Part shown: positions 8,493 to 33,154 of the stretch, piece by piece
How positions within the stretch are numbered: position 1 is the stretch's first letter
How the letters are laid out: every line of letters begins with the position of its first letter
Source: Bacteroidia bacterium
GTDB lineage: Bacteria; Bacteroidota; Bacteroidia; J057; JADKCL01
DNA length: 64,000 bases
Direction of reading: 5' to 3'
NCBI GenBank assembly: GCA_020635905.1
Contig: JACJYV010000004.1
Span: 243,142 to 307,141 of the forward strand
Position numbers and translations under genes: made by a program
The notes under the pieces: generated by a model
What the model saw: the letters and a program-made list of their open reading frames with translations, nothing else
The model's database searches: none
What the model was told of the DNA's origin: nothing

Positions 8493-8614
8493 GGGGACCT
8501 CTAAAAACGATGAAGATCAAGGCGGACGCAGGTGAGGAAAGCGGAGTTTACTAAGGTAAATGAGCATTTCCGAACCAAGTCCAACGCAGAGATTCGAAGT
8601 TTTTTGAGGTTCCC
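8493..8614 (+). mobile_element. MITE-like 122-bp element, copy 1
   Basis: Ends are GGGGACCTCTAAAAAC ... GTTTTTTGAGGTTCCC, which are inverted. Flanked by the direct duplication TTAT (8489-8492 and 8615-8618). Homologous to the copies at 27868 and 33034. Confidence 0.7.
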
Positions 8615-8855
8615 TTATGCAAAATTATCAATCCCTGTCTTTCCGAACAAACCATTTCTTTCTGCATTCATATTGGGACCTCCAAATATTTCTGAAAACC
8701 CGATGTTTTAGCCTCCCTTCTCACTGTTTTTCCCCTGACAAAACTTTTTTCAGGAAAAAACAGGGCCTATCCAGTTTAAACCCAGATCGGATTTTTTGGG
8801 GTTGACTATCTGAAGGAAATGTTAGAATTTGCTTCAAAATCAACGTTTTAAAGGC

Positions 8856-10091
8856 ATGATAAAAGAAAAAATGGGAATTTCCTCTGCAGAAGCCATCAGG
8901 CTGGAAGATCAGTACGGCGCTCACAATTATCATCCCCTGCCTGTGGTTTTATCCCGGGGTGAAGGGGTGTTTCTCTGGGATCCTGAAGGAAATCGCTATT
9001 TCGACTTTTTGTCTGCCTACAGTGCCGTAAACCAGGGGCATTGCCACCCCAGAATTATCAAAGCCCTGGTCGAACAGGCCTGCCAGCTCACCCTAACTTC
9101 CCGGGCCTTCCACAGCGATCAACTCGGGCAGGCTGAAAAATACCTGGCCGAAACTTTTGGCTACGACAAGGTTCTGATGATGAATTCCGGGGCAGAAGGG
9201 GTGGAAACGGCTTTGAAAGTGGTGCGCAAATGGGGCTATGAGGTGAAGGGCGTGGCTGAGAATCAGGCCAAAATCATCGTCTGTGAGAAAAATTTTCATG
9301 GACGAACCATTGGCATTGTTTCTTTTTCATCTGATCCCGAATCCAGGGGTGGATTTGGGCCGTTTTTGCCCGGATTTGAAATGATTCCCTATAATAATCT
9401 GCCGGCTTTGGAAAAGGCTCTGCAAGACCCTAACGTAGTTGGGTTTCTGGTAGAACCCATTCAGGGTGAGGCAGGTATCATGGTTCCTGATGAAGGATTC
9501 CTCAAGTCAGCTTATGATTTGTGCAAGGCTCAAAATGTGCTTTTCATCGCCGATGAAATTCAGACGGGCATCGCCCGTACTGGTAAAATGCTGGCCTGCG
9601 ACCACGAAGGCGTTCACCCGGATGTGCTCATTCTGGGCAAGGCCGTTTCAGGCGGGGTTTACCCCGTTTCTGTGGTTCTGACCCGCAACGAGGTCATGAA
9701 CGTGATCAAACCCGGTCAGCACGGTTCCACCTACGGTGGAAATCCATTGGCCTGCGCAGTGGCCAGAGCAGCCCTGGATGTGGTGAAGGAGGAAAATCTG
9801 GCTGAAAATGCTGAACGGTTGGGTAAAATTTTCCGGGACCGTATGCGGGCCATCAACCATCCCATGGTGAGCCTGGTACGGGGAAAAGGCCTACTCAATG
9901 CCGTGGTTATCCATCCTACCAACGGTTTTGAAGCCTGGGACGTTTGTCTGAAGCTCAAGGAACTCGGCCTGCTTGCCAAGCCCACCCACCGCCATATCAT
10001 CCGTTTTGCCCCGCCGCTGGTGATCACAGAGGAGCAAATTCACGAATGTTGCGACCTGATCGAGGCCGCCATCACTTCATTTAAGGTGTAG
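8856..10091 (+). CDS. rocD: ornithine aminotransferase
   Basis: Class III aminotransferase. [14 protein letters not shown]-terminus typical of OAT, DEIQTG, and a PLP-lysine context (ILGKAVSGG). Start placed at ATG 8856. Confidence 0.88.
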
Positions 10092-11826
10092 TCAGGGAGG
10101 GAAACTTCTCCAGTTCAGCTTCCATTTCTTCCATCAGTTGGGCGGAAAAGGCAGCAATTTCCTGTAAATCATTTTCCTGAAAAGGGGAAGAGAGACCTGC
10201 TTTTTGCAATAATTCAGGAAAGGAGCAACTTCCGCCTACCACGGCCATGCTTTGATAGGTCTGCCAGGCCTTTTCGGGATCTTCCTTGCTCTTGCGCAAA
10301 ATGTCCAAAGCCGCAATCGTAGCCAGGCCGTAGGAAAGAATGTACAGGGGAGATTGGTAAAAATGCCCGAATTCCCGCCAGGCTTTTCCTGAAGTCAGGT
10401 AGGGATGGCCCTCAAAATCCACTTCACGGCCATATTCGGCCTCCAGTTGCAGCCATTTGGCGTCCACCAATCCCAGATCGCAGCCCGGGTGGGAATAGAC
10501 AAAGTCTTCCAGCTCAAATCCCTGGGAGCATCTGAGGATGCGGATGATGGATTGCGCCAGGTGAATCAGTTTGAATAAAACCAGATCCCGCCCACTGAAA
10601 AGGTGATTTAAGCCCTTCCAGGCCAGAAATTCCATGGCGTGGGAAAATACTTCTGAGGAATCTGTAGCCCCGTGAATGTAGTCGTAAATGTCCCAATGGA
10701 AGCTCTGTTCGTTCTGGTAGGCATGGCCGATCTCGTGGAACAGGGTGAGCAGCGACTGCGGGTTGTCGAGCTGGGTGACCACATGCACGAACGATTGCCG
10801 GACTTCGGGCAGGGAAACTGAAAAGCTGAAACCCGTGTTTTTGCCGGCAAAAACCATGAGTTCATTTTCACGCAGGCGCTGGGTGAATTGATGGACCTGG
10901 GGTGAGATCTCACCCAGGCACCGTTCGAGCGACCGCTCGATTTCATCCTGGCCCAGGGTCATGGACGAAGCCCAGTCATACTCGGAAAAAGTGGCCCGGT
11001 CATAATAAGCCAGGGTTTTTACCCCGATCATCTTTTCCTGCAAATGGGTGATTTTGCGGCCCAATTCGGCAAAATGAGTTTTGATGCCGCGGGCAAAATC
11101 GTGCAGTTGGGCATAGGAAACTCCCTGCCGTTTGTGCACCAGGTGACCAAGTTGCAGATAATTTTCAAATCCCGCTGCCCGGGCCATTTCATGACGGTTG
11201 GCCACCATTTTCTGAAAAATATCCGCCAGAAACTCATCCTTGAGCATGGCAAAATCGAGAATCCCGTCAGAAATGGTTTTCCGTTTGGGGCGTTCTGCCA
11301 CCTTCATCCAGTGCAGCCATTGAGAGAAATTTCCCTCCTTGTCCCCGATTTTGAAAGATTTACCCTGAAAATTCTGCCTGAACTCGTTGACCAGTTCTGT
11401 TTCCCTCAGCTTAAAAGCCGTCAGTTGGGGCTGATCTTGTCGCACAAAGCTCTCGGCCAGGTGGGTGATTTGCCGGCCGAATCCTTCTTCCAGTTGGGGT
11501 AAAAAGGGTGAATCCAGCAGATTTTGGTAGAAAATGCCCATTTTCTCCCCCAATTTCGGCCCGATGGCGTTATTGATCTGGTATTCTGCCTTATAGTCAA
11601 GTCCTTCGTCGCCTGCGAGCATGCGCAGAAAGCTCAGGGTCCAGTGGGTTTGAAATCTGATTTGAAATTCCTGCACCTCCACGAAAGCTTTGCGGGCCTG
11701 GGCAAAGGTTTTGGCGGCCGAAAAATTATCCACCAATCGTTGCAACTCCGTTCCCAGGGAGTTTTCTGTCAGGGGTTGGTATGGAATTTCCGCAAATTTC
11801 ACTGCACGTCCTTTTTGGGAAACCAC
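10081..11826 (-). CDS. M3-family oligoendopeptidase (PepF-like)
   Basis: 581 aa with the zinc motif HEIGH (FHEIGHAYQ) and downstream Glu. GTG start. The 3' end overlaps the convergent rocD by 11 nt. Confidence 0.8.
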
Positions 11827-12599
11827 GGAAAAAATGCACTCGTTCTGCGCTTATAAGCGTCAAACTCAGCATTCCCCTTATAAGGTGCCTCCAGCATGGG
11901 AATGCCCGATACCTTGAGCAGCAAAAAGCCAATGATCAGCGGACTGACAATAGTGAAAATTCCATTTTCACTACCCAAGGCCACCAGGAAAAATCCCCAC
12001 CAAAGCAAAGCCTCCCCAAAATAGTTGGGATGACGGGTCAGGGCCCAAAGGCCGGTGGTAAGAAAGCGCGGTTTGGGCTGAGGTTTTTGGATGAAAAGCA
12101 TAAGTTGCAGATCGCCAATGGCTTCAAACAAAAAGCCAATCAGCCAGATGGCAACGCCGGGAATGGTCAGCCAATCCAGGGAGGAGGGTGGGGGAGTCTG
12201 CTCAGCGACTACAAACTGAATGGGTAGGGAAACAACCCACATGATGATGCCCTGCAGCATGAAAACCTGCAAAAAGGAACGCCAAACCACGGTTTTGCCC
12301 CATTCTTCCCGCCATTTGGCATAGCGCGGGTCTTCGCCTCTTCCCCAGTTTCGGGCTCCAATGTGCCAGGCCAGCCTGATGCCCCAAGCCCAGGTCATCA
12401 AAAGCGCCAGCGAAGGCCGGGTCGGAAATTCAACCTGCTGAGTGAAAAATGTATAAGTTGCCACCAGCACAAAGCCGATTCCCCATCCAATATCCACGAT
12501 ACTGTTGTTTTTGAGCACCTGAGCCAGCAGGAACATCAAAACCATGAAGGCTCCAATCAGGAGAGCGCTATGTAATAAGGCTTCGGCCAGGTTTCCCAT
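11799..12599 (-). CDS. DUF1295 / steroid 5-alpha-reductase-like membrane protein
   Basis: 266 aa, polytopic. C-terminal LxTxGLWALTRHPNYFGE motif typical of this family. Confidence 0.7.
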   Translation of the reverse strand: MGNLAEALLHSALLIGAFMVLMFLLAQVLKNNSIVDIGWGIGFVLVATYTFFTQQVEFPTRPSLALLMTWAWGIRLAWHIGARNWGRGEDPRYAKWREEWGKTVVWRSFLQVFMLQGIIMWVVSLPIQFVVAEQTPPPSSLDWLTIPGVAIWLIGFLFEAIGDLQLMLFIQKPQPKPRFLTTGLWALTRHPNYFGEALLWWGFFLVALGSENGIFTIVSPLIIGFLLLKVSGIPMLEAPYKGNAEFDAYKRRTSAFFPWFPKKDVQ

Positions 12600-12617
12600 T
12601 CGTAATTCATTAAACCC

Positions 12618-12639
12618 GGAAAACCACCTCTGGTTTTCC
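12618..12639. other. perfect 9-bp hairpin (GGAAAACCA cctc TGGTTTTCC)
   Basis: Seen directly. Lies between the OmpA-family gene end (12774) and the DUF1295 start (12599). Terminator or 5'-UTR structure; no clear U-tract. Confidence 0.35.
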
Positions 12640-12773
12640 CTTGCTCAGACCCCTTATTCCCGAAAGTTGATTGCGAATGACCGGAAAATATTCCCAATAA
12701 TGGATTTTCCCCGGCCACGATTGACTGGGCTAATTTGTGAAAAACCTTGCGGATTTCAAACCGCGATTTTTCC

Positions 12774-14717
12774 TCACTCGAATCCTGTGATCCTGATTTC
12801 CACCCGGCGGTTGGCAGCCCGGCCTTCTTCTGTATCGTTTTCAGCCACGGGCTGCTCCATCCCGTAGCCCATGACCGACATTCTGCGGCCTGATATGCCC
12901 TGTAGGAGCAGGTAGTCGCGCACTGACTCTGCCCGGCGCTGGGATAGCTCTTTTTTGTGGCTGATATTTCCGGTATTGTCCGTAAATCCTGCAATTTCAA
13001 ATTTCACGTTGGGATTCAATTTGAGGAAATACAGCAAACGGGCCAGGCCTGGGCCCGATTCCGCATGCTGCAGGTCCCATTCGCCCGTTACGAAATGAAG
13101 GTTATTGCAAATGGCCTTGGAACCTACCCTGATGGGCTCCAGTTGCACATCCAGATGGATTTCAGGGCTTTTGGTCAAGAGATCCAGATCCACGTCCTGC
13201 CCATAAAACATGTAACCGGGAGCGATAAAATTGACGCTCACTTTCTGGCTGCCCGAGGGCAATTCCAGCAAATACAGCCCGTCCGTCTCATTGGCGTAGA
13301 TTTTGTCGATTTCATCCAGGTTGTGGTTATTGGTCAGGGTAATCTCGGCTTTGATGGGAAAACCGTTGGTTTTGTCCAAAACCCGCCCGGCCATGTAATT
13401 CATGGATTCGTAAGGCTGGCCTTCCGTAAAGGAAATCTTGGTAAACCACATATCATTGCCCATGTCTTTGCCTGTGTTTCTCAGGTCACCGTCCACAGAT
13501 TCAGCATATCCAGCGGCCAGAAAATCGCCCGTAGGCAGGGCAATGGCATTATAAAATGCTTCATAATCCTCGCCCCCTGCGGTCATGGCCCACTCTTTTT
13601 TGCCCGTGGAGTCAATTTTGATCAGGATGGCGTCGTAATGGCCGCGGTTTTTGGCTGCAATGCCATCCTCTGAGGTCGTGGTACCCGAAATCAGGTAGCC
13701 CCCGTCCGGGGTTTGGCGGATGTTATTGGCGCCGTCTGACTTGCTGCCGCCGTAATTGCGGCTCCACAGCAACTGGCCCCACTGATTGAATTCAAAAGCC
13801 CAGATATCGCCGCGGCCATATTGCCGGGCCAGGTCTCCGTTGCCGGAAAAAGAGGTTCCCACTCCCACAAAATTACCCTGACGGTTGGGAATTACTGCGG
13901 CAAGCTCTTCATAATCACTGCCTCCATAATTTTTATTCCAGATAAAATCGAGATTCCGCGACATCATAAAAACCCAGGCGTCTTTCTTCCCTTTGGGATC
14001 TTTGATATCGTGGCTTTCAGAGGTGGAAGTGGCACATACCAGAATCTGGCGGTTGGGCAATTGAATAATGTCCTTCACCTGCTCATTTTCGGGTCCGCCA
14101 AAAGACTTGGTCCAGACCACCTCTCCCTTTTCGTCGAGTTTGGCAAACCAGGCGTCGAGGCCGCCGCGGGAGTAGGTCATATCGCCATCCAGGGAGCCCG
14201 ATTCGCCGCCAACCAGGTAGGTGCCGTCAGGATTGGGCCAGATGCAGTAGCCCTTGTCATTGCCGTTGCCGCCGTAGGTTTTCACCCACTCTTTCTTACC
14301 CATGGCATCCAGTTTGATCACCAGAATCTCGAACCCACGGTGTTTTTTATTGATGTCTCCGTCGGGAGAAGTCGTGGTACCTACCACCACCACGCCCTGG
14401 TCGGGCGTGACCTTCATCTGGGCGAATGTTTCGCGGCCTGTACCACCCACAATGGTGCGCCAGATCACCCGGCCATTGGCCGAAACCTTGGCCACCACAA
14501 TGTCTTCAATCCCTGCCAGGTGGTTGCCTTCCCCGATTCCGTCTGTGGATTGGGTTTCGCCCCCGATCAAAAAAGTCCGGCCGGGCATCTCGATCAGCTC
14601 GCAGGCCTGATCATACATTAGGCCGCCATACAGCTTTTGCCACACGATTTTTTGCGCCTGAACGGAAGTGAAAAGGAGGAAGAAAATTCCCAGAAATGAG
14701 TAAATGCGGGTCGTCAT
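12774..14717 (-). CDS. OmpA-family protein with N-terminal beta-propeller-like repeats
   Basis: 647 aa with a signal peptide. At least 7 repeats of the W.K.YGG...D...PDGGY...G.T.S type. C-terminal OmpA_C domain (GFTDNTG...LSQRRAESV...NRRVEI). Confidence 0.8.
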   Translation of the reverse strand: MTTRIYSFLGIFFLLFTSVQAQKIVWQKLYGGLMYDQACELIEMPGRTFLIGGETQSTDGIGEGNHLAGIEDIVVAKVSANGRVIWRTIVGGTGRETFAQMKVTPDQGVVVVGTTTSPDGDINKKHRGFEILVIKLDAMGKKEWVKTYGGNGNDKGYCIWPNPDGTYLVGGESGSLDGDMTYSRGGLDAWFAKLDEKGEVVWTKSFGGPENEQVKDIIQLPNRQILVCATSTSESHDIKDPKGKKDAWVFMMSRNLDFIWNKNYGGSDYEELAAVIPNRQGNFVGVGTSFSGNGDLARQYGRGDIWAFEFNQWGQLLWSRNYGGSKSDGANNIRQTPDGGYLISGTTTSEDGIAAKNRGHYDAILIKIDSTGKKEWAMTAGGEDYEAFYNAIALPTGDFLAAGYAESVDGDLRNTGKDMGNDMWFTKISFTEGQPYESMNYMAGRVLDKTNGFPIKAEITLTNNHNLDEIDKIYANETDGLYLLELPSGSQKVSVNFIAPGYMFYGQDVDLDLLTKSPEIHLDVQLEPIRVGSKAICNNLHFVTGEWDLQHAESGPGLARLLYFLKLNPNVKFEIAGFTDNTGNISHKKELSQRRAESVRDYLLLQGISGRRMSVMGYGMEQPVAENDTEEGRAANRRVEIRITGFE

Positions 14718-14963
14718 ATCTTATCGATCAATAGAAAAACCACCTGCCTTCGCAGGATAAACGTCTCAAAACTCCATTTATTTGATCGCAAACGGAAATC
14801 ACTAATTGTGTATAAGTGAAGCGATTGTAGCCAGTGAGAGACAGTTTTGCCAGCATAACGTTTACCCGAGTAACCTTTTGGGATTACAGTTTGGATACTG
14901 CTTAATAACCGTTCATCTTATTTGCCTTGATTGAAATTATGATAAAATCCACCTTATCAGGAA

Positions 14964-14998: not shown

Positions 14999-15056
14999 AA
15001 AATCCCCCAGCCGAAGCCAGGGAACTGAAATTGAACTTCCTGAAATATTTTTTTAA

Positions 15057-15117
15057 GGGGTAAGTGAGCATTTCTGAAACAAGTTCAACGCTGATATTCA
15101 AAGGTTTAGGGGTTCCC
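15057..15117 (+). mobile_element. MITE-like element, truncated/degenerate copy 4 (right half)
   Basis: ggggtaagtgagcatttctgaaacaagttcaacgctgatattcaaaggtttaggggttccc aligns to the right half of the full copies. No matching left end and no flanking duplication. Confidence 0.55.
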
Positions 15118-15705
15118 AATTGCAGCGATGAAATCCATTTGCAGAGCCGGAATATCCATGGCAATGGCTTCAGCTTCCGTCAGTTGAGCAATGGAAGGAT
15201 TTGCCCCGGGCAAAATCTGGGTCAGCATCAGCGCCCCGTTTTGCCGCTCGATCAGGTCATATCTGACCACCACTTCCCGACCCGTAATGGTGCCCCGAAA
15301 CAGGGCCGACCACATGCCAGGGGCCGTTTCCCGCACTTCCTGATCCGACCAGAGCAGGGTGCCATCTCCACCCGACTGGGTGAAATCGAGGTCTTTCAAC
15401 TCCTCTTTCATGGTTTTCTCATCCAGCGCTACCAGCAGGATGAGCCCGCCCGTCTTTTCATTTCTGAAAAGCCCTTCAGCTTCTCCCAGGGAGGCCTGCT
15501 CCAAAAACCAGATGGGATTCGACTGAATTCCCATGCAATATTGCCAGCCCTGAAGCCAGCTTGCTTCAGGTTGATAATGCGCAGGCAGCACGATCCTTTG
15601 CTCCATGCTTTGTCCAGATTGAGCCTGAGACTGAGCGAAAAGATTTCCCGTGTTGCACAGGGCGAGCACCATCAGGAGGGCGGAGATTTGGGCGAGTCGT
15701 TTCAT
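15106..15705 (-). CDS. hypothetical secreted protein
   Basis: Track ORF trimmed to ATG 15705 (MKRLAQISALLMVLALCNTGNLFAQ signal peptide). The last three codons and the stop lie inside the truncated MITE. Confidence 0.5.
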   Translation of the reverse strand: MKRLAQISALLMVLALCNTGNLFAQSQAQSGQSMEQRIVLPAHYQPEASWLQGWQYCMGIQSNPIWFLEQASLGEAEGLFRNEKTGGLILLVALDEKTMKEELKDLDFTQSGGDGTLLWSDQEVRETAPGMWSALFRGTITGREVVVRYDLIERQNGALMLTQILPGANPSIAQLTEAEAIAMDIPALQMDFIAAIGNP

Positions 15706-15969
15706 GGGATTATTTTTTTGTTGTATGGGTTTGTTGAACAATTCAAAGATCGCAGCCCCGGCCTGCAAAAATTAACAACCCCCGGCGCATTAATATCAAC
15801 TTTGATGCAATTTTAGGCGGATTTGAGCCATTTTCAACCAAAATGTAAGCTGTGTTTCAGATCCTGTCAATCCAGTTTCCCGGTCAGCATGCATCAGAAA
15901 GGGTTAGTTATGAATAATCTCACCTGCAAAGCGGTCTCTCTCAGGAAGCGGGCCCATGGCCCGTTTACA

Positions 15970-19345: not shown

Positions 19346-19490
19346 TCAATTAACAATTAGCAGAGAGCAATGAACGGAAATCAATTGTCAATTAGCAGAG
19401 AGCAATGAACCTTTGCTTCTTCTCTTACATCTGATATCTAACTGTCTAAAATCTAATTGTCTGACATCTAAAATCTAATTCTCTAAAATC
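19346..19490. repeat. heptanucleotide-phased intergenic tract (R2) with 35-bp higher-order repeat
   Basis: Runs stop-to-stop between convergent genes. tcaatta acaatta gcagaga gcaatga acggaaa is repeated 35 nt later; then come tctaaaa/tctaatt-type units. Confidence 0.8.
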
Positions 19491-20789
19491 TTATTTAAAA
19501 TAATTGATATGAGCAATCCCCACCAACTGGTGGTTGCGGTCGGTGAAGTTTTTGTAATAAACCAGGATAGAATAGACGTTTTCCGTCTCATAATGGGACC
19601 CTTCCAGGCGTGATTCGTCGAGGTGGCCTGTTTTTCCGTCTTTGACTACGTATTGGTAATCGTACACGCCCTGCTTGAGCAGGACGCCCGTTTCGTAGCG
19701 GCGGGTATCTGCATTGAAAACACACTCAAATTCATCCTGAGCCCGCCAATCCGTCATTTTACTGAAGAGATACACCTTGTCATTGCCCATGGATTCGGGA
19801 AAATTGAGGGAAAATTTCACCAGCAGGTAATCAGCTTCGTAGTCGGCATTGGGCCATTCCTGCACCCCCACAAAGTAGCTGCCATTGAAATCGTACTGAC
19901 TCAGGTAGCGATTGGTGAGGCGGGGTTCCTCGGGCCAGAGACGCACGTAAAAGATGGAATCGAGGTCGCGCACGCTTTCCATGCGCTGAGAATGGAAGCG
20001 GGTGCTGCGCAGGTCCACCATGCGGTATTCGTTGCCTCCTTTGAATTCCGTGGCTGCATCAAAAACATACTGTAAACGATCGCCCTGCACAAACTGAGGT
20101 TGCACGTGAGTGGCGGCATTATCCCAACGAAAATTCTGCAGAATCACCACTTCAAGGTCCTGGTAGGGGTTATTGATCTGCATGCCGCTGGTAAAGAGGT
20201 CAAAGGAAACTGTTTGCAGGCGCATGCGCTGCGATACGTCAATGGTCTGACCCACATTGGGTTTGATCCCCACCTTATTATCTGCCACGATCATCCTGCG
20301 GCTGAAGGTGATATCTTCCTCGTCGCCCGCACGGTACACATACAACAGGTAATTTCCACTTTGGGTGAAGGCGATTCGCTCGGGATCCAGGATGTATTCG
20401 TAGTGAAAATAAGGCACTTTGGTGTTCTGTGATCGCTGCCAGTTGTAGATGCGGTCGTAGGTGACCCCGTCCAGAAATTCAATGGGAAGCACGTTTACGG
20501 GCTCCCAGTTGGCATCGGCAGGCAGAAAACCCACGTAGAAATCCTCGGGATCCTGGTCCCAGGGCACCAGTTCGTCGAATTCGAGGATGAGACGACCGGG
20601 CGAGCGCAGGGGAATGATGGGATAGCCCATTTCATTGCCTTCCACATAAAACTGAATGGTACGAATAGCCGGGTCGTACACCATGTCGCGGTATTCCAGG
20701 GTCGCATTTTGGGCGAAATTGAAGCCGGGGAGGAGGGAGGCGATCAGGAGAACGCTCCAAAGGGGAAGGATTTTGAATAAATTTTGCAT
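19491..20789 (-). CDS. secreted protein, DUF5103-like (T9SS-associated family; family name tentative)
   Basis: Track ORF trimmed to ATG 20789 (MQNLFKILPLWSVLLIASLLPGFNFAQ). Beta-rich, with C-terminal GVYDYQYVV and a YKNF..R tail resembling that family. Confidence 0.55.
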   Translation of the reverse strand: MQNLFKILPLWSVLLIASLLPGFNFAQNATLEYRDMVYDPAIRTIQFYVEGNEMGYPIIPLRSPGRLILEFDELVPWDQDPEDFYVGFLPADANWEPVNVLPIEFLDGVTYDRIYNWQRSQNTKVPYFHYEYILDPERIAFTQSGNYLLYVYRAGDEEDITFSRRMIVADNKVGIKPNVGQTIDVSQRMRLQTVSFDLFTSGMQINNPYQDLEVVILQNFRWDNAATHVQPQFVQGDRLQYVFDAATEFKGGNEYRMVDLRSTRFHSQRMESVRDLDSIFYVRLWPEEPRLTNRYLSQYDFNGSYFVGVQEWPNADYEADYLLVKFSLNFPESMGNDKVYLFSKMTDWRAQDEFECVFNADTRRYETGVLLKQGVYDYQYVVKDGKTGHLDESRLEGSHYETENVYSILVYYKNFTDRNHQLVGIAHINYFK

Positions 20790-20869
20790 GCCTGGGGGCC
20801 AATTTCCATGGATTAAACCAGGAAAACAAGGCAAATATTGTACCTGAATTTGAATTGCAACCTGGAAAA

Positions 20870-22786
20870 TCAGTTTTCGAGTTCTTCGAGCTCTTCGGCC
20901 AGTTTTTCCCATTCAGGATTGAGGGCTTCCAGGCGGAGGTCGATGGCATCCACTTCTTTCTGGATATTGGCCAGCCCTTCAAAATCACGCGCCATGTCGG
21001 GACTGCTCATTTTTTCCATCAGGGCTTCCTTTTTCTCCTCCAGTTCCATGATTTCCGCTTCCACCTTCTCAAACTGATTGCGCACCCGCTTCTCCTTTTT
21101 CCGCTTTTCCTTGTCTGCCCAGTAGTCGTGTTTTTCCTTGGGTTCCTCCGCCGTTTTCACGGATTGTACGGGCGCAGCGGCAGGAATTCCGGACTTCAGT
21201 TTGCGGTGATATTCAAATTCCTCGTAGGTGCCGGGGTATTCTTTGAGAATATGATTTTCAATGTACCAAATCTTATTGGCCACTTTGCCCAGGAAATAAC
21301 GGTCGTGAGATACCACCACATAGGTGCCTTCATAGCCATTGAGCGCCTGAATCAGGATTTCAATGCTGCCAATGTCGAGGTGGTTGGTGGGCTCGTCAAG
21401 CAGGAGAAAATTGGCTTCCAGCATGAGGGTTTTGGCCAAAGCAACCCGGCTTTTTTCCCCACCTGAAAGCACACTAATCTTTTTCTCCACATCGTCACCT
21501 GAAAAGAGAAATCCCCCCAGAATATTCCGCACATAGGTTTCGCCTTTTTTCATCACAAAACCGCGCATTTCCTGCAGGATGGTGTCGGTCTGGGTGAGGG
21601 ATTCGAGTTGGTGCTGGGCAAAAAAGGAGGGCTGCACGTTGGTCCCATAGGAGACCTGTCCGTCAAAAGGCTCAATCTCCCCGATCATGCGCAACAGCGT
21701 GGATTTTCCCATTCCGTTGGCTCCAATAAAAGCGATTTTGTCGCCCCGCACAATGGAGGCTTTGCAGGGGGTGAAAATGAGTTTATCCCCGTAACGTTTT
21801 CCCTTGATATCTATTTCCAGAATCTGCTTCCCGGGCTGAACAGAAGGCGAGAATTTGATTCTCACATCACTTCCCTCGGACTCTGGCGCACCAATTCGTT
21901 CCACTTTATCCAGCAGTTTGATCTTGCTTTGCACCTGACGGGCCTTGGTGGCTTTGGCGCGGAAACGATTGATAAATCGCTCCGTGTCCTTGATCATTTT
22001 TTGCTGGTTGTCGTACTCGCGTTTCAGTTGTTCTTCGCGAATCTCCTTCTCCTCGAGGTAAAAAGTATAGTTACCCTTATAAAAATGGAAGCGCTGATGC
22101 GCCACTTCAAGCGTACTTGTAACCAGACGATCCAGGATAAAACGGTCGTGGGAAATGATCACGTAGGCGCCTTTGAAGGAAGCCAGATACCCTTCCAGCC
22201 ACTCAATGGAGGGCAGGTCGAGGTGGTTGGTGGGCTCATCGAGCAGGAGCACATCGGGTTGGGTGAGGAGCAGTTTGGCCAGCATCACCCGCATGCGCCA
22301 ACCTCCTGAAAGGTTGTGATAAGGCGCTTTTTGCACTTCTTCGGGAAAACCCAGTCCGCCCAGAATCTCGTGCACACTGGTTTCCATGTTGTAGCCGCCC
22401 ATGGCCTCAAAAAGATGCTGCTTGTCTGAAAGGCGGCTGATCAGCTGCGGATCGGGATTTCCTTCCAAATCAACCAGCAATTGGTCAATTTCCTCCTTCA
22501 GTTTGAGCGCGGGGGCAAAGGCCTCCATGGCTACTTCGATCACAGAATCGCCTGATTCAAAGGAAAGTAACTCCTGGTGCAGATAGCCAATGCGGCAATC
22601 TTTGGCCATACTCACCTTGCCCGCGGTGGGGGTGAGGTCGCCTACAATCAGTTTGAGCAGGGTAGTTTTTCCTGTCCCATTACGGCCAATCAGTCCTACG
22701 CGGTCGCCGGGCTTGATCTGCCAGGTCGAATCCTTGTACAGGAAGCGACCGCTGAACTCAAACGATATGTTATCTAAGGTAATCAG
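20870..22786 (-). CDS. ABC-F family ATPase (Uup/YbiT-like, two ABC domains plus C-terminal coiled coil)
   Basis: Two Walker A / LSGG signature / Walker B sets and a charged C-terminal coiled coil. The first Walker A (GRNGTGKTT, 22661-22687) lies upstream of the first ATG/GTG/TTG (22615). The start is therefore set at in-frame CTG 22786 (or ATT 22783), giving an (M)ITLDNISF N-terminus. Confidence 0.8.
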   Translation of the reverse strand: MITLDNISFEFSGRFLYKDSTWQIKPGDRVGLIGRNGTGKTTLLKLIVGDLTPTAGKVSMAKDCRIGYLHQELLSFESGDSVIEVAMEAFAPALKLKEEIDQLLVDLEGNPDPQLISRLSDKQHLFEAMGGYNMETSVHEILGGLGFPEEVQKAPYHNLSGGWRMRVMLAKLLLTQPDVLLLDEPTNHLDLPSIEWLEGYLASFKGAYVIISHDRFILDRLVTSTLEVAHQRFHFYKGNYTFYLEEKEIREEQLKREYDNQQKMIKDTERFINRFRAKATKARQVQSKIKLLDKVERIGAPESEGSDVRIKFSPSVQPGKQILEIDIKGKRYGDKLIFTPCKASIVRGDKIAFIGANGMGKSTLLRMIGEIEPFDGQVSYGTNVQPSFFAQHQLESLTQTDTILQEMRGFVMKKGETYVRNILGGFLFSGDDVEKKISVLSGGEKSRVALAKTLMLEANFLLLDEPTNHLDIGSIEILIQALNGYEGTYVVVSHDRYFLGKVANKIWYIENHILKEYPGTYEEFEYHRKLKSGIPAAAPVQSVKTAEEPKEKHDYWADKEKRKKEKRVRNQFEKVEAEIMELEEKKEALMEKMSSPDMARDFEGLANIQKEVDAIDLRLEALNPEWEKLAEELEELEN

Positions 22787-26864: not shown

Positions 26865-27037
26865 GTTCAGATTTTAGATTTTAGATGGATAGATTTTAGA
26901 GGTTAGTCTTGAGTCCTTAGTCCTTAGAGGTAAGATAAAAGACAGTTCAAGTTTCGCCACTCGCCACTCGCCACTCGCCACTTGAAACTCTGAACTTACA
27001 ACCACCCGCTCGCAGCTCGAAGCCAGCAGCTTGAAGC
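26865..27037. repeat. heptanucleotide-phased intergenic tract (R4)
   Basis: 23 consecutive units between the galU start and the MIOX stop. 11 end in AG, 7 in AC (including TCGCCAC x4) and 5 in GC. Only 3 units are not exactly 7 nt. Confidence 0.85.
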
Positions 27038-27850
27038 CTAAAAATAAACGGGGGCTTTGCCGAGATATTTCTCAATGATGGGCTGATAATACTCCATCAG
27101 TTGGTCGAGGTTGTAGGTGACGGGAGCTTTGGTGTACAGATCAAACAGGTTGAATTCGCGCACCCACTCTTTGTACTGCTCGTCGCGGTCATCATCGAGG
27201 AGGGAATAGGCTCCGTGGCTGTGCCAGGGGTAAAATGAGTGGTAACGGACCATGATCATGCCCGCTTCAGGGATGCGGTTTTCTGGATGGTGGCTCAGCA
27301 CCTGAAACAGATATTCGTCGTGTCCCCAGGCTTTGAGGCAATTGTCAATGCCGCAATTGGCTTCGTACATGCCCAGGGGGGTAAAATAATCCGGGTTTTC
27401 CATGTCGGGATTCAACTCATTGAATTCGGGAAAAACCACGCCCTGCGGCAGCTGACATCCCACCAGAAAAATATCGCCCACCAGGCCCCATTGCTCTTTG
27501 AGCGAGGTGCCGTCCTCGTCGCAACCCCACAGGTACATGACCTTGCCCAGGTCATGGATGAGGGCCACCAACTGAAACCAATCGGGTTTTCCGGCACGTC
27601 TGGCGCCTTCTGCGGCCTGCAAAAGGTGCTGTACATTGGGCAGGTCCATGTCGGGATCGCTGAGATCCACGAAGTCATTCAGGCCCTCCAGGGCCTGACG
27701 GATGGTCATGGGATGGTCGAAGGTCAGGTATTTGGCCTGCATCCTTCTGACGTAGGCAACCGTCTGATTTTGGCGCATTTTGCGGTAATTTTCGCGCACA
27801 GCGGGCAGCAAATGCCCGGTTTCGTAATTGCGGAATTGGGTCTTTTCCAT
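27038..27850 (-). CDS. myo-inositol oxygenase
   Basis: About 270 aa with MIOX/HD-type di-iron motifs: LIHDLGKV, AWGHDEY, RYHSFYPWH, and C-terminal DLYTK. Trimmed to ATG 27850; the longer ORF reads into the MITE. Confidence 0.85.
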   Translation of the reverse strand: MEKTQFRNYETGHLLPAVRENYRKMRQNQTVAYVRRMQAKYLTFDHPMTIRQALEGLNDFVDLSDPDMDLPNVQHLLQAAEGARRAGKPDWFQLVALIHDLGKVMYLWGCDEDGTSLKEQWGLVGDIFLVGCQLPQGVVFPEFNELNPDMENPDYFTPLGMYEANCGIDNCLKAWGHDEYLFQVLSHHPENRIPEAGMIMVRYHSFYPWHSHGAYSLLDDDRDEQYKEWVREFNLFDLYTKAPVTYNLDQLMEYYQPIIEKYLGKAPVYF

Positions 27851-27867
27851 GGGGTGAAGATAATAAA

Positions 27868-27989
27868 GGGAACCTCTAAAAACAAAGAAGATCAAGGCGG
27901 ACGCAGGTGAAGAAAGCGGAGTTTACTACCGTAAATGAGCATTTCTGAGCCAAGTCCAACGCAGAGATTCGAAGTTTGTAGAGGTTCCC
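27868..27989 (+). mobile_element. MITE-like 122-bp element, copy 2
   Basis: GGGAACCTCTAAAAAC ... GTTTGTAGAGGTTCCC, with 15 of 16 TIR positions matching. Flanked by the direct duplication TAAA (27864-27867 and 27990-27993). Confidence 0.72.
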
Positions 27990-28093
27990 TAAATTTTGCG
28001 GCCTTCCCCAAGGCGTGCTTTCTCATTTGAATAAATGTGAATATGCTTTAGCTTTGCCTCAACGATGCACGCAAAAAACACATACCCAGCCGT

Positions 28094-29452
28094 TTGGCTA
28101 AGCAGATGATGGTTTGGCTTTTGATCAAAGTACCCTGGTATTTTTTACGGGCCATGTGGGCTTTCCTGCTTGGTTTGGGCAAGGGGAAAGGTCAGACCTG
28201 GTATGCAGGGGAATTTCTGGTTGCGCGGGATGATTTTCGCCTTTCTGCACCCGAAAAAGAAAGCCGTTTGGTGGGGTTGAAGATTTATGTGCGGACTTTG
28301 AGAGCCATTTTCAAAAATTCCAAACCCTCCCTGGAAAAGCTGGCTGACGCGTCCGTGGGAATTTATGATTCGCGCATGGCCAACCTCAAACTGCGCACGG
28401 AGTACGTGGAAGCCCAAAGTGGAGAAAAAGTAGGTACTTTTATCAGCAGTTCGGGCTTGTTGTATGGGGAGGGATTTTTGCAAAAAATCCTGCTTTTCTG
28501 CATGCTGAGTGGATTTTTCTCCTTTCTCTGGCCCTTCACGATTTTGAGCAAATACAGGGCCAATCTGGCTCAGATCATGCCCGATACGGTGCGGGTAATC
28601 AATCTGTTGCGCATCCTCAGAAAGCATAAAATCAGCAGGCTGTATTACTTTTTCATTTTTGAAATTTATGCCAATGTGGCCGCTCAGGTACTGATGAGCG
28701 AAGGAATCACCCTCCTGAAAGTCACGTCCATGTCGCCCCTCACTTTCCATGCGAGGGTGGTGATTGCCAGTGAATTATGCGTGAATACGGCTTACCAGAT
28801 GGAGGAAACCCGCATCTTTAAAGACACTTTGTTTGTAGGGAAATTTCACCTCTGGGCTCCTGAAATGTACATGGATCACATTGAAAAGTACCGCGAGGCT
28901 GATCCTGAAGCTACTCCAAAACATGTATTGGGGTATTATTCAAGTGGTTATGAATTGAGGTTCAGCCTGGGCGAATCACATACGGGTTTTTTCGGCGATC
29001 CAGAATCTGACGACATGTTGCGGGAATATCTGCGGGAATATCTTTTGAGCCATCCTGAAGTCAAACTGAAAATCTTTTTGCATCCCTTTGAAAAGCGCTC
29101 AGATGAGCGCTATGCTCAGGCCACGAAGTATTATTTTGACCATTTTCAGGGCTGTAATATTGAGATTATGGGTCGGGATATTTCCACCGTGGGCAGTCTG
29201 GAATTGGTGGATGTAGCGCTTTCTGTTTTGTCCAATTCTCTGGCTGACCGCCTCTATTTTGGTTACAAAGGTCTTTTTACTCCGTTCACCGTGGATCGCC
29301 TGCCTGCGCCCGGCACTTCGCTGGAGGCCATTTGTGCCAAATCCAAAGCGCATTTATTTGAGTTACTTGACCGCAGTATGGCCCAGAGCACGGATGAGTT
29401 TTTCAGGGAAAATAAGATTGATAATTACCGTTTCAGGCGAAATAAAACCTGA
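28094..29452 (+). CDS. hypothetical protein (N-terminal TM; C-terminal half vaguely GT-B/TagF-like)
   Basis: 452-aa ORF with a TTG start; ATG 28106 is an alternative. No firm motif. The C-terminal pattern KIFLHPFEKR...VDVALSVLSNSLADRLYFGYKGLF resembles the HP...SS..-E core of GT-B transferases. Confidence 0.5.
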   Translation: MAKQMMVWLLIKVPWYFLRAMWAFLLGLGKGKGQTWYAGEFLVARDDFRLSAPEKESRLVGLKIYVRTLRAIFKNSKPSLEKLADASVGIYDSRMANLKLRTEYVEAQSGEKVGTFISSSGLLYGEGFLQKILLFCMLSGFFSFLWPFTILSKYRANLAQIMPDTVRVINLLRILRKHKISRLYYFFIFEIYANVAAQVLMSEGITLLKVTSMSPLTFHARVVIASELCVNTAYQMEETRIFKDTLFVGKFHLWAPEMYMDHIEKYREADPEATPKHVLGYYSSGYELRFSLGESHTGFFGDPESDDMLREYLREYLLSHPEVKLKIFLHPFEKRSDERYAQATKYYFDHFQGCNIEIMGRDISTVGSLELVDVALSVLSNSLADRLYFGYKGLFTPFTVDRLPAPGTSLEAICAKSKAHLFELLDRSMAQSTDEFFRENKIDNYRFRRNKT

Positions 29453-31891
29453 TCAGATCAATTCCACCCAAACTTCTTCCTTCACCCAGCCCAAATCCAC
29501 CCAGGGTAGATTTTCCATGAATAATTCCGTTCCAGAAGGGATTCCAAGGGGATCAAAAGAACTGATTGGCGCCACAAATTCGAAGCGGTCACGTTCCACT
29601 TTCACAGGCACGCCATTCACCCTGACCGTTTCACCCAATTGATTGAATCCGTGCAGATAGATCCTCAGGTAGCGGAAATGGGTGGGAAAAGGACCTTCTG
29701 CGCCCTGAATGTGGATTTTCTGAGTCTTGCTGTCCAGTTGGATTATTCTGCGGTAAAATTCTCCCCGCTCGAAAGCGTAGCTTTCTCCATCGTCTTCGTA
29801 GTAGAGAAATTCAGAATCCCCCTTTCCTTTGTAAACATGCAGATTGAGGCGGGTTTCAGGTTTCATACCTGCATGCAAAACTGCCGATTGCATGGGTATG
29901 ATTGCTCCACCTTTGACAAAGAGCGGCAAAGTGGTTTTAGGACAATCTGTGACGATTTCCTGATCGCCTTCAAAGGGAGTATCACGGAATAATTCATACC
30001 AGTTGCCTTCGGGCAAATATACTTTGGTCAGTTCCTTGTGACTTTCCACAGGCGCAACCAGTATGGAAGGACCAAACAGGTACTGATTCTGGTAGGCGGG
30101 ATGGTAAATTTTTTCGTTGTGGGGATGCTCAATTGCGAGGGAACGGGCAACGGGAATTCCTGATTGAGAGGATTCATAAAAGCTTGAATAGAGATAGGGC
30201 ATCAGCTTGTATCTCAGGCGAATATAGTTGCGGGAAATCTCTTCAACCTCCTCCCCAAAACCCCAGGGTTCCGCGTCGCGGCTGTTGATCATGCTGTGTC
30301 CGCGGAAAAAGGGAGAGAAGGCCGCCAGGCAAATCCAGCGGGCAAAAAGATTCACATTGGCGGTACCAATAAATCCACCCGCGTCGTAGCCAGCAAAGGG
30401 GATTCCAGTCAGGCCCAGGCTGTTGACCAGGCGCACCCCGGCCATCATGTGAGCATCTGAGGCCGTATTATCGCCCGTCCAGACCGCGCTGAAACGCTGG
30501 GTACCTGCATAGCCCGCCCGGGTCAGGATGAAAGGCCGTTTGCCCCCCAGGTGCTTTTGTGCTCCTTCGTACGTGGCACGGGCCATTTCCATGCCATACA
30601 CATTCCGGGCTTCACGGTGACTGGCTCCCCGTCCTTCCAGGTCAAATTCGATCAGATTGGGCATAAACTGACCCCAGGTGGCGGGCTCATTCATGTCGTT
30701 CCAAAAGCCCTGAATGCCCTTTTCCGTGTAGAAACTGAATTTATCCCCCCACCAATCGCGGGTTTGGGGATTGGTGAAATCGGGAAAATGGCTCCAGCCC
30801 GGCCAGACAGCGCCTTCATAATCGCTTCCGTCGGGATATTTGAGGAAAAGATCCTGCTTTTTGCCTTCTTCGTAGGGTGCATATCCGGGTTCCACTTTGA
30901 TACCCGGATCAATGATAACCACCACTTTGAAGCCCATTTTTTCCAGTTCGGCCACCATTTCCGCGGGTTGGGAAAACCGCTCAGGATGAAAGGTAAAGAC
31001 CTTGTAGGCATCCATGTAGTGAATGTCGAGGTAAATCACATCTGCGGGAATGTCTTTTTCGCGAAAAGTTCGGGCAATGGTAAGAACTTCGGTATCAGGA
31101 TAATAGCTGTAGCGGCATTGCTGGTAGCCCAGGGCCCATTTGGGCGGCAGGGGCATGCGTCCGGTCAGTTGGCTGTATTCGTAGAGAATTTCGGCGACCG
31201 AATCAGCGGAGATGAAGTAGTAACCCATATTGCCGCCGTCGGCGGCAAAGGAGGAAAAGCGATTATTGGAGGCCCCGAAATTGAAATAGCTTTTGCTGGA
31301 ATTGTCGAAAAAGATGCCATACTGACGCCCAGAGTGGACTCCCAGATAAAACGGAGCGGTAAAATAGATTGGATCAGCATCGTCTGGATAGCCAAAATGG
31401 TCGGTGTTCCAGTTGGTGTAACCACTGCCGCGACGATCCAGATTGCCCGTTTTTTCACCCAAACCCAGAAAACGTTCCCCGGGCTGAAGTTTTTTATAGG
31501 TGCTTACTTCGTCTCCAATCCAGGAAGTGCCAAATGCAGCGTCATCCTCATTCAGCAATTCGCCTCTGGAATTATAAAAATTCAGACGCAGGGGAGATTT
31601 TTGCAGGCGAAGTTCCAGGTCAGCGGTCTGAATTTGCAGAAATTCGCCCTGATCAGAAACGAGGCAGAGATTTTCGGCTGGTTCGGCAATCACGGCGTAG
31701 GAGTGAGGCGTAAAATCCTCAATCAGGCGGCGAATGCGGATACGAATGGTCTTTTCAGAATAGGTTAGCACCTCCATTTCGGCTTCTGCAGTCTGCAAAC
31801 GAATTCCTGAAGGGATTTTTTCCCAGGAAAGCATTTCGCTCAGAGACTGATTCATATTGGACCGACGGGCGCGTATGGGTTTTTCCGGCAT
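29453..31891 (-). CDS. glycoside hydrolase family 31 alpha-glucosidase
   Basis: 812 aa. GH31 catalytic signature GFWNDMNEP plus a FTRAGYAG..R..AVWTGDN region. ATG 31855 is an alternative start. Confidence 0.9.
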   Translation of the reverse strand: MPEKPIRARRSNMNQSLSEMLSWEKIPSGIRLQTAEAEMEVLTYSEKTIRIRIRRLIEDFTPHSYAVIAEPAENLCLVSDQGEFLQIQTADLELRLQKSPLRLNFYNSRGELLNEDDAAFGTSWIGDEVSTYKKLQPGERFLGLGEKTGNLDRRGSGYTNWNTDHFGYPDDADPIYFTAPFYLGVHSGRQYGIFFDNSSKSYFNFGASNNRFSSFAADGGNMGYYFISADSVAEILYEYSQLTGRMPLPPKWALGYQQCRYSYYPDTEVLTIARTFREKDIPADVIYLDIHYMDAYKVFTFHPERFSQPAEMVAELEKMGFKVVVIIDPGIKVEPGYAPYEEGKKQDLFLKYPDGSDYEGAVWPGWSHFPDFTNPQTRDWWGDKFSFYTEKGIQGFWNDMNEPATWGQFMPNLIEFDLEGRGASHREARNVYGMEMARATYEGAQKHLGGKRPFILTRAGYAGTQRFSAVWTGDNTASDAHMMAGVRLVNSLGLTGIPFAGYDAGGFIGTANVNLFARWICLAAFSPFFRGHSMINSRDAEPWGFGEEVEEISRNYIRLRYKLMPYLYSSFYESSQSGIPVARSLAIEHPHNEKIYHPAYQNQYLFGPSILVAPVESHKELTKVYLPEGNWYELFRDTPFEGDQEIVTDCPKTTLPLFVKGGAIIPMQSAVLHAGMKPETRLNLHVYKGKGDSEFLYYEDDGESYAFERGEFYRRIIQLDSKTQKIHIQGAEGPFPTHFRYLRIYLHGFNQLGETVRVNGVPVKVERDRFEFVAPISSFDPLGIPSGTELFMENLPWVDLGWVKEEVWVELI

Positions 31892-31921
31892 GGAATTTTA
31901 TTCAAAAGGGAAAAAAGCAGG

Positions 31922-32908
31922 TTAAATGGAAAGGATTTTGGAGATCCGCAGGATGTCGGGGTCAACTCCCGAACCTTTGCGAATGGCCTCTGTAATAGGC
32001 GAGTAGGTGATTTTATCATAAAGCAAGCCCACCATCTGACCTTCCCTGCCTTCCATCAATCCTTCCACTGCAGCCACACCCAAACGGCTGGCTATCACCC
32101 GGTCATAGCTGCTGGGGCTTCCGCCCCTTTGCAAATGCCCCAGAATGGTAACTTTGGCATCGTAATTGGGGAGAATTTCCTTGACTTTGGCCGCCACCTC
32201 AATTGCAGAACCCAGGGTGCCTCCCTCAGCTACGATCACCAGGCTGCTGCTTTTGCCGCTCAATTCCCCGGCTTCAAGAATTTTGACAATATCATCTATG
32301 GTGGTTTCTTCCTCAGGAATGATGGTAGCCACTGCACCCGTGGAAATACCTGCCCGCAGGGCGATAAATCCTGCGTCGCGTCCCATTACCTCAATGAAAA
32401 ACAGGCGGTTGTGGCTGGAAGCCGTATCCCTGATCTGGTCAATGGCCTCTACTGCCGTATTGCAGGCCGTATCAAAGCCAATGGTAGCCTCCGTGCCGCG
32501 CAAATCGTTGTCAATGGTGGCAGGTACGCCCATCACGGGTATGCCAAAGTTTTGGTGAAAGGCATTGGCTCCGGCAAATGTACCGTCACCTCCAATGGTC
32601 ACCAGGGCGTCCACACCTGCTTTTTGCAGGTTTTCAAAGGCCTTCTCCTGACCTTCCCGGATTTTGAATTCGAGGCAGCGGGAAGATTTGAGTACGGTGC
32701 CTCCACGATCGAGAATCCAGGCCACTGAACGGGCGTTCAATTCCTCCATTTCGTTCTGAATGATCCCCGCATAACCCCGTTTGATGCCCGTAACCTTTAT
32801 TCCGTAGTAGATGCAGGTCCTGACCACCGCCCGGATGCAGGCATTCATGCCCGGCGCATCGCCGCCAGAGGTAAGTACCCCGATGTGTTTTACCTTAGAT
32901 TCCAACAT
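31922..32908 (-). CDS. pfkA: ATP-dependent 6-phosphofructokinase
   Basis: 328 aa. Motifs IGVLTSGGDAPGMNA, IGGDGT, PATIDND and MGR are all present. Confidence 0.93.
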   Translation of the reverse strand: MLESKVKHIGVLTSGGDAPGMNACIRAVVRTCIYYGIKVTGIKRGYAGIIQNEMEELNARSVAWILDRGGTVLKSSRCLEFKIREGQEKAFENLQKAGVDALVTIGGDGTFAGANAFHQNFGIPVMGVPATIDNDLRGTEATIGFDTACNTAVEAIDQIRDTASSHNRLFFIEVMGRDAGFIALRAGISTGAVATIIPEEETTIDDIVKILEAGELSGKSSSLVIVAEGGTLGSAIEVAAKVKEILPNYDAKVTILGHLQRGGSPSSYDRVIASRLGVAAVEGLMEGREGQMVGLLYDKITYSPITEAIRKGSGVDPDILRISKILSI

Positions 32909-32982
32909 TTTATTAACTTCGCACTAAATCCTTCCTTTTTACGGCAAGTTAGTGTCAATTTTACACTTACGCAATAGTTTCC

Positions 32983-32990
32983 TATATTTG
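32983..32990 (+). promoter_or_regulatory. Bacteroidota-type -7 promoter box (TATATTTG), plus strand
   Basis: Perfect TAnnTTTG, 43 nt upstream of MITE copy 3 and 183 nt upstream of ATG 33174. Confidence 0.45.
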
Positions 32991-33033
32991 CAACCAGACT
33001 TTTTAAAGGTCTGAATTTTTGCCGTTAAATAAA

Positions 33034-33154
33034 GGGGACCTCTAAAAACAAAGAAGGTCAGGGCGGACGCAGTTCCAGAAAGCGAAGTTTACCGGGGTAA
33101 ATGAGCATTTCTGAAACAAATCCAACCCAGAGATTCAAAGATTTTGGAGTTCCC
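33034..33154 (+). mobile_element. MITE-like 121-bp element, copy 3
   Basis: Homologous along its length to copies 1 and 2. Flanked by the direct duplication TAAA (33030-33033 and 33155-33158). Ends 19 nt before ATG 33174. Confidence 0.7.

Follow-up and report, generated by a model that had tools for sequence, protein, structure and literature searches.

An ERIC-like hairpin interior on IS5-type ends in a Bacteroidota genome

What are the short repeats that recur between the genes of a Bacteroidia bacterium, what might move them, and do they belong to a named family? The window analysed here is a 64,000-nucleotide stretch of contig JACJYV010000004.1 (assembly GCA_020635905.1, positions 243,142 to 307,141, forward strand). 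An original prediction made from its letters had described the repeats as a transposable element of the miniature inverted-repeat kind (MITE) with 16-bp terminal inverted repeats (TIRs) and 4-bp target-site duplications (TSDs), and had assigned it to no named family. We found that the repeats are a genuine MITE, a non-autonomous DNA transposon. The fuller reading that we argue for is a Bacteroidota MITE with IS5-type ends and 4-bp TSDs whose interior is homologous to the ERIC/IRU family, and we put its probability at roughly 0.8. We name the element for what it combines: an ERIC-like interior, ends of the IS5 type, 4-bp TSDs and a host from the Bacteroidota. Its copies lie in the window as follows.

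8489..8492, no strand: left TSD of copy 1, TTAT (partner 8615-8618)
8493..8614, plus strand: full MITE copy 1, 122 bp (TIRs 8493-8508 and 8599-8614; apical conserved module 8537-8570)
8615..8618, no strand: right TSD of copy 1, TTAT
15057..15117, plus strand: right-half remnant, the fourth copy (nhmmer E = 2e-11; model positions 61-121)
27864..27867, no strand: left TSD of copy 2, TAAA (partner 27990-27993)
27868..27989, plus strand: full MITE copy 2, 122 bp (TIRs 27868-27883 and 27974-27989; apical module 27912-27945)
27990..27993, no strand: right TSD of copy 2, TAAA
33030..33033, no strand: left TSD of copy 3, TAAA (partner 33155-33158)
33034..33154, plus strand: full MITE copy 3, 121 bp (TIRs 33034-33049 and 33140-33154; apical module 33078-33111)
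33155..33158, no strand: right TSD of copy 3, TAAA

The three full copies align end to end with 81-91% identity over 129 nt. The original prediction was right about these three but missed the right-half copy, which breaks at the apical loop and retains the right TIR (GGTTTAGGGGTTCCC). All full copies carry the 16-bp TIRs, the left one reading GGGRACCTCTAAAAAC and the right one its imperfect inverse; in copies 1, 2 and 3 the left ends are GGGGACCTCTAAAAAC, GGGAACCTCTAAAAAC and GGGGACCTCTAAAAAC, and the right ends GTTTTTTGAGGTTCCC, GTTTGTAGAGGTTCCC and GATTTTGGAGTTCCC. The flanking 4-mers are perfect in 3/3 copies. Two random 4-mers of the window match with a probability of 0.005 per copy, hence the agreement is not due to chance. 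Each full copy folds into a single long imperfect hairpin (–38 to –50 kcal/mol, z-scores –3.8 to –7.0), with the central hairpin and the two boxes, CAAGGCG and AACGCAG, present as originally described. Open reading frames (ORFs) within the copies are short and non-conserved, in agreement with the claimed lack of coding capacity. All full copies do share the plus orientation, as had been pointed out; counted over four copies, this is not significant (P-value about 0.125). Beyond the right end of copy 1, at a distance of 60 nt, stands a solo TIR-like sequence (GGGACCTCCAAATATTTCTGAAAAC, window 8675-8699), which may be the decayed end of a related element.

Are the flanking 4-mers true duplications? 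A scan of metagenome contigs with the left end alone (GGGRACCTCTAAAAACNNNGAAG) returned 65 loci, mostly from one metagenome, and revealed a sister family with 48 full copies with flanks, nearly identical to each other. When elements were delimited by their TIRs alone, perfect 4-bp TSDs were found in 34/44 sister elements versus 0-1/44 at shifted offsets. These TSDs comprise 23 different AT-rich 4-mers, for example TAAA, ATAA, TTAT, TTAA, TCAA and TTGA. The 4-mers are TSDs, as the original prediction had held, and as a MITE the finding is ordinary.

The ends point to a transposase family. The TIR GGGsAyCTCTAAAAAC and the 4-bp TSDs are common to the MITE and to ~1.26-kb insertion sequences (ISs) of the IS5 family. 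One scan match (locus L098) is a 1278-bp element with ends GGGGACCTCTAAAAAC and GTTTTTAGAGGTGCCC; its 351-aa ORF contains PF05598 and PF01609 (DUF772 + DDE_Tnp_1) and scores 286 bits against the NCBIfam equivalog NF033581 'IS5 family transposase' (cutoff 140). Proteins ~70% identical to this transposase are common. Contigs that carry their genes contain elements with a length of ~1257 bp, bounded by the TIRs GGGCATCTCTAAAAAC / GTTTTTAGAGGTGCCC and flanked by TCAA and TTTT as TSDs. In L098 and L166-L171 alike, GGGsAyCTCTAAAAAC ends surround a transposase that matches NF033581, PF05598 and PF01609; the 4-bp duplications listed for these ISs are TCAA, TTTT and TTAA/TCAA. The original prediction had placed the autonomous partner elsewhere and proposed a search for an IS with matching TIRs. 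Such ISs exist outside the host data, and they belong to the IS5 family.

The same pair of TIRs also bounds 17 small elements with unrelated interiors, 14/17 of them with 4-bp TSDs. The transposase therefore uses the ends and not the interior. We suggest that an IS5-family IS elsewhere in the genome would supply the transposase in trans, and that the enzyme would bind both 16-bp ends of the MITE and insert it where an AT-rich 4-bp target is cut in a staggered manner, and repair would then duplicate the target. The interior of the MITE is not derived from the IS, and movement by the IS5-type ends does not require the ERIC-like interior, given that unrelated interiors are carried by the same ends. 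Individual MITEs with these TIRs, 4-bp TSDs and completely different interiors measure 131-155 bp (L104 2002-2156; L107 7076-7206 and 9946-10089; also L111, L132, L139, L140, L156 and L136). One is a 243-bp chimera (L124 752-994) whose interior retains its ERIC-like ends around a replaced centre.

What, then, is the interior? It folds as an imperfect, rod-like hairpin ~90 nt long, capped by an almost invariant apical module, GAAAGCGGAG-TTTAC-N4-GTAAA-TGAGCATTTC. For the apical pattern AGTTTACNNNNGTAARTGAGCATTTC, which has 22 specified bases and for which about 0.1 chance matches are expected (a rough estimate), we scanned a single genome of each species and obtained at least 86 loci. The hosts among the matches listed include Gammaproteobacteria (Pseudomonas/Ectopseudomonas, Thalassolituus, Oceanospirillaceae, Halomonas, Methylococcales, Methylophagaceae and Yersinia rohdei), Desulfobacterales, Geopsychrobacteraceae, and the Bacteroidota Tidjanibacter, Alistipes, Lentimicrobium and Prevotellaceae. 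Homology across hosts covers element positions of about 20-100, and the internal-loop motifs CAAGGCG / AACGCAG are conserved along with the apical module. The outer stems share almost no sequence and yet keep their pairing. In a 46-sequence alignment, 94.5% of cells are paired, versus 29-43% with the partner slid, there are 187 double-changed cells versus 51 in shuffles, and 14/26 pairs show compensatory change. The stems show covariation, which the original prediction had proposed to examine, and the hairpin is under selection. Copies found by a model that did not require the pattern keep the module with a few changes, some of them compensatory (GTGTAC/GTACAT, GTTTGC/GCAAAT). A few relatives with intact ends have 4-bp TSDs (TTGA, CTAT, CTAA, with AATA and CTAG added by eye) and termini of the form CAGsssGTTGAAAAAC. 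We found no annotation of these elements in plasmid records and no match to the apical core in IMG/VR viral contigs.

The relatives vary in several other ways. In some Pseudomonas-type copies a second repeat of ~50 nt (..GTAACAGCnnnnGGCTGGCCCGnAGGGCGAGCG..) takes the place of one arm, left or right, at constant internal positions (L018, L027, L057, L070, L076, L003 at 7850-7983, L053 and L035). An inserted IS was considered for the left-arm cases and rejected, because what replaces the arm is a short repeat that neighbours housekeeping genes. The right arms of L001, L013/L044, L045, L020 (5257-5387) and L059 enclose small CCCC...GGGG hairpins, about 20-45 nt long, which look like another tiny insertion element. 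Gut Rikenellaceae (Tidjanibacter) have several copies per 8 kb (L064 4519-4653 and 6019-6154; L031, L058, L079). These show a fourth terminal type, GCGGsTGATTTmTGTG..., with the GAAAGC/GCATTTC flank swapped for other paired sequence and only GCAG-TTTAC-N5-GTAAA-TGAG kept. On the Pseudomonas amygdali pv. aesculi plasmid pCOR2250 (L090 1200-2470), two tandem IS630-family copies at TA sit beside an ERIC-like element that lies upstream of the coronafacate ligase gene and has its own flanks, CTAG/CTAG; the IS630 was rejected as a partner because it is a separate insertion at TA. Record NZ_CP077935.1 (L087; 256 kb), labelled a Staphylococcus aureus plasmid, has apical-module matches at about 99.85 kb and 239.5 kb, which is odd for a Firmicute, and may be mis-assigned or contaminant sequence.

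The lead to a named family was given by the ERIC-PCR primers, which contain GGAGCTTAC-ATAA-GTAAGTGA; the resemblance was then tested. Reviews describe ERIC as a 127-bp MITE of Enterobacteriaceae and Vibrionaceae with TA duplications, co-transcribed with its neighbours and affecting mRNA stability through RNase E in an orientation-dependent manner. The ERIC centre occurs in each of the 5426 E. coli genomes, with a median of 9 sites per genome; one E. coli copy reads TATACTCTAAATAATTCGAGTTGCAGGAAGGCGACAAGTGAGTGAATCCCCAGGAGCTTACATAAGTAAGTGACTGGGGTGAGCGAACGCAAACGCAGCACATGCAACTTGAAGTATGACGAGTATA. ERIC and the window copies have in common, in the same order, the motifs CTCTAAAnAA, AAGGCGrC, GTGAG, GAG-yTTAC-N4-GTAAr-TGA, AACGCAG and GAAGT. 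Two covariance models were compared, one of the family (R1) and one built from 8 enterobacterial ERICs only (R2). In 50 kb of E. coli DNA the only match of the family model was the ERIC copy (18.2 bits, E = 0.014), and it matched 5/8 enterobacterial ERICs at full length (14-24 bits), all in one orientation. Conversely, the ERIC model gave 14 matches over the window and the 86 loci (718 kb), all of them family elements in matching orientation. It scored 56.5 bits at L024 (E = 9e-11), 40.7 bits at L078, 30.7 bits at copy 1 (E = 3e-4) and 28.7 bits at copy 2 (E = 1e-3). Judged by these models, the interior is quite probably, though not certainly, related to ERIC. The original prediction left the element without a family name; the covariance models now make its interior a distant relative of a named one, ERIC/IRU.

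Several observations weigh against the combined reading. On the side of the ends, no IS5-type transposase was found in the 64-kb window (by tblastn, as the original prediction had stated), in the MITE-bearing metagenome contigs (512 kb) or among the 86 loci from genomes, the host itself being represented by 64 kb of its genome. The ISs with matching ends are labelled Nitrospirota and are more GC-rich; with no homologue near the MITEs either, the partner in the host is one that we infer rather than one that we found. The window and the MITE-bearing metagenome contigs have no DNA in common. The contigs thus represent a different organism and supply no empty sites, and exact-protein look-ups of the genes flanking the window copies gave no match and no empty site. 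On the side of the interior, a sequence-only hidden Markov model of ERIC (nhmmer) produced no significant match in our search (best E = 0.39-0.52), and pairwise local alignments of ERIC with the family are weak, only about 1.6 standard deviations above shuffles on average. Both covariance models describe a single long hairpin and are roughly calibrated, so their E-values are rough. Finally, ERIC is reported to duplicate TA, whereas the element here duplicates 4 bp, and the termini are unlike those of ERIC.

These last points are what one would expect if the element were an IS5-type MITE that resembled ERIC by convergence or accident, with two unrelated palindromes of 120-130 nt happening to share short motifs and hairpin geometry. 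We consider this rather unlikely. The matches of the two models are reciprocal and orientation-specific, and fall on the elements only, across 718 kb and the 50 kb of E. coli DNA. CTCTAAAnAA, AAGGCGrC, GAG-yTTAC-N4-GTAAr-TGA, CCAACGCA and GAAGT recur not only in the same order but at the same spacing. Intermediates exist, such as L024, which combines its high score with ERIC-like termini. The geometry of the right end relative to stop codons, described below, is also common to annotated ERIC loci and the family of the Gammaproteobacteria.

A broader reading is that ERIC is one branch of an ancient pan-bacterial hairpin module, spanning Bacteroidota, Gammaproteobacteria and Desulfobacterota and selected independently of the ends, with a conserved partner or function. 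We offer this tentatively, somewhat short of even odds. The ends do not need the module, yet the module is nearly invariant, and from this a conserved partner or function would follow. If the reading is correct, the module (GRG, a 5-bp stem, N4, the stem, TGA and the GAAAGC/GCATTTC flanks) experiences strong purifying selection and rides on at least three or four terminal types, the IS5-type ends with 4-bp TSDs among them, and the candidates for its partner or function would be a host RNA- or DNA-binding factor or a function at mRNA 3' ends.

After collapsing orthologous loci of Gammaproteobacteria and other relatives to 62 clusters, we found that the right end abuts or contains an opposite-strand stop codon at 19 independent loci, versus 5 mirror cases at the left end (binomial test, P-value = 0.007; the count is ORF-based and approximate). 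The same geometry is seen in annotated ERIC loci, at ybhI in E. coli and at ABC-transporter genes in Rahnella and Klebsiella. It matches a rule on stop codons and orientation that De Gregorio reportedly described in 2005 for Yersinia ERICs. The young Bacteroidota copies show no clear orientation bias (+E+ 10, -E- 3, convergent 10, divergent 11). Selection after insertion is therefore more likely than target choice as the origin of the bias in the older families. RNA transcribed through a copy from a neighbouring gene could form a hairpin with a folding energy of –38 to –50 kcal/mol. Such a hairpin could alter mRNA processing or stability depending on orientation, as an analogy with Yersinia ERIC suggests.

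Could the repeats instead be structured non-coding RNA genes or cis-regulatory RNAs, immobile, with the 'TIRs' as their basal helix? The strong covariation and the invariant apical module would suit this, as would the better folding of the plus strand in copies 1 and 2 and the promoter-proximal positions in the window. We nevertheless regard it as highly improbable, since the TSD statistics, with variable 4-bp duplications in 34/44 copies, largely refute it. IS5-family ISs, and MITEs whose interiors differ, have this supposed basal helix as their TIR, and the sites of insertion are unrelated to gene function. Rfam scans at the gathering threshold of the window and 10 related loci, and an E-value scan of copy 1, gave no match for the element; a match to a known structured RNA family was what the original prediction had named as speaking against it. 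Rfam finds only a tRNA in the window, and the element itself gives only sub-threshold junk matches to C/D-box families. A K-turn or C/D-box reading of the core was rejected because the snoRNA matches are far below threshold and the loop geometry does not fit. A signature of RNA on the plus strand was likewise rejected, as G:U pairs outside the core show no excess there (148/2243 on the plus strand versus 198/2282 on the minus strand). The apical tetraloops are variable, with no recurrent tetraloop motif. Beside the apical stem, the conserved GAG/TGA would give tandem G.A mismatches together with a G.U or G.T pair, an arrangement that is stable in RNA and DNA alike. The data show a selected hairpin, which may act at the level of DNA or RNA.

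A REP/REPIN palindrome moved by a RAYT transposase (HUH, single-strand), or a palindromic element of the IS200/IS605 type, is hardly credible. REP/REPIN resemble the MITE in being palindromic, intergenic and close to stop codons, with stems kept by compensatory change; the long hairpin, the GTAG beside the basal stem in Pseudomonas relatives and the frequent adjacency to stop codons speak for this alternative. However, HUH elements make no target duplications, whereas here 4-bp TSDs of many sequences are the rule, the window copies lack the GTAG tag typical of REP/REPIN, and the ends match those of DDE-type (IS5) insertion sequences. It is scarcely tenable that the core is conserved as a micro-ORF (GGAG, 13 nt, ATG AGC ATT TC.., MSIS...), for although GGAG and ATG (GTG in ERIC) are conserved in the core and the modal ORF length is 15 aa (23/87 copies), lengths vary widely, between 5 and more than 100 aa, the peptide past MSIS merely mirrors conserved nucleotides, compensatory stem substitutions rewrite it, and the spacing of 13 nt between Shine-Dalgarno sequence and ATG is long. 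Integron attC sites, with their hallmark boxes 5'-RYYYAAC ... GTTRRRY-3', were also rejected: the one motif that resembles a box, GTCCAAC, lies on the wrong arm, and the copies lie 5-19 kb apart among housekeeping genes rather than in arrays spaced by cassettes.

We return to the MITE in its own genome. The window encodes a type IX secretion system plug protein (19491-20912, minus strand; NF052315, 355 bits, cutoff 100) and is therefore from Bacteroidota; its sequence is otherwise known only as short Logan contigs. All three full copies lie between divergently transcribed genes, which agrees with the promoter-proximal placement first proposed. Copy 1 separates an ORF at 7987-8457 (minus strand) from the gene for ornithine aminotransferase (plus strand), 35 nt from the nearest start codon, that of an unconfirmed ORF. 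Copy 2 lies between the MIOX gene (27038-27850, minus strand), from whose start codon it begins 17 nt away, and an unnamed gene (plus strand). Copy 3 lies between PFK (31922-32908, minus strand) and the gene for an NrtR-like NUDIX regulator (plus strand), whose ATG (33174) follows 19 nt after the end of the copy. The remnant at 15057-15117 contains, in its right end, the stop codon of an ORF at 15106-15768 (minus strand) without a Pfam match. As the full copies occupy divergent 5' regions 17-35 nt from start codons, any effect of theirs would act on promoters or 5' untranslated regions. The three insertions may alter expression of MIOX, the NrtR-like gene and the unnamed ORF, a modest consequence.

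The intergenic DNA of the window also holds many tandem repeat arrays with a 7-bp period and differing units (TCGCCAC, ACGGTTT, TAGTCGT, AGCAGTC, TCTAAAA-like), at 26954-26982, 33972-34023, 35391-35431, 39870-39905, 44194-44245, 19423-19495 and 54921-54952. They usually lie just beyond gene ends, and some are mutually related in inverted orientation.

ERIC has been a typing target for 35 years, and its described range is limited to Enterobacteriaceae and Vibrionaceae. The relative in Bacteroidota, with its IS5-type ends, and those in Pseudomonas, Oceanospirillales, Methylococcales and Desulfobacterota suggest that the hairpin interior is a much older module whose ends can be swapped. The moderately surprising part is that a nearly invariant apical module crosses phyla independently of the ends. 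Two roles would thereby be separated: transposition needs the ends, while something else keeps the apical hairpin almost unchanged. The young Bacteroidota family with intact TSDs and its IS5-type partner offer a system in which the function of the module and the transposase that moves ERIC-like elements can be tested.

Literature searches with the core and TIR strings returned unrelated primers only. Other bacterial MITEs, such as Correia/NEMIS of Neisseria and RUP and BOX of pneumococcus, resemble the element in being small, non-coding, TIR-bounded and intergenic and, like it, fold as long RNA hairpins able to affect neighbouring mRNAs. They have no sequence relationship to it, duplicate TA and depend on other transposase families. 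Chunjie was rejected as the identity of the element, being a different MITE of 178-235 bp. Closer is MITEPsy1 of Pseudomonas syringae, a 100-nt MITE derived from the IS5-family ISPsy2, whose transposition was demonstrated experimentally and whose authors proposed that related elements might occur widely in bacteria. It shares with our element the assignment to the IS5 family, the 4-nt target duplication and the type of TIR (GGAAGGTCTGAAAAAGCC versus GGGGACCTCTAAAAAC here). Its targets, however, are CTAG/YTAA rather than diverse AT-rich 4-mers, and its interior is unrelated and without the ERIC-like apical module. For this reason MITEPsy1 was also rejected as the identity of the element.

The closest comparison for the interior is ERIC itself. 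The two are alike in length (121-122 bp here versus 127 bp), in their build, a single long palindrome with imperfect pairing whose motifs come in the same order, in being intergenic, non-coding and devoid of a transposase, and, for the Gammaproteobacteria relatives, in abutting a stop codon with the right end in one orientation. They differ in host (Bacteroidota here versus Enterobacteriaceae/Vibrionaceae), in termini (GGGRACCTCTAAAAAC, GGG...CCC, versus TATACyCTAAATAAT, TATAC...GTATA, in ERIC), in the TSD (4 bp of variable sequence versus TA) and in the flanks of the apical stem (GAAAGC/GCATTTC versus CCCCAG/CTGGGG). The window copies, moreover, lie in divergent 5' regions and not at 3' ends. 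Because two defining features of ERIC, the TA duplication and the host range, do not hold, the element is an ERIC-like variant and not ERIC proper.

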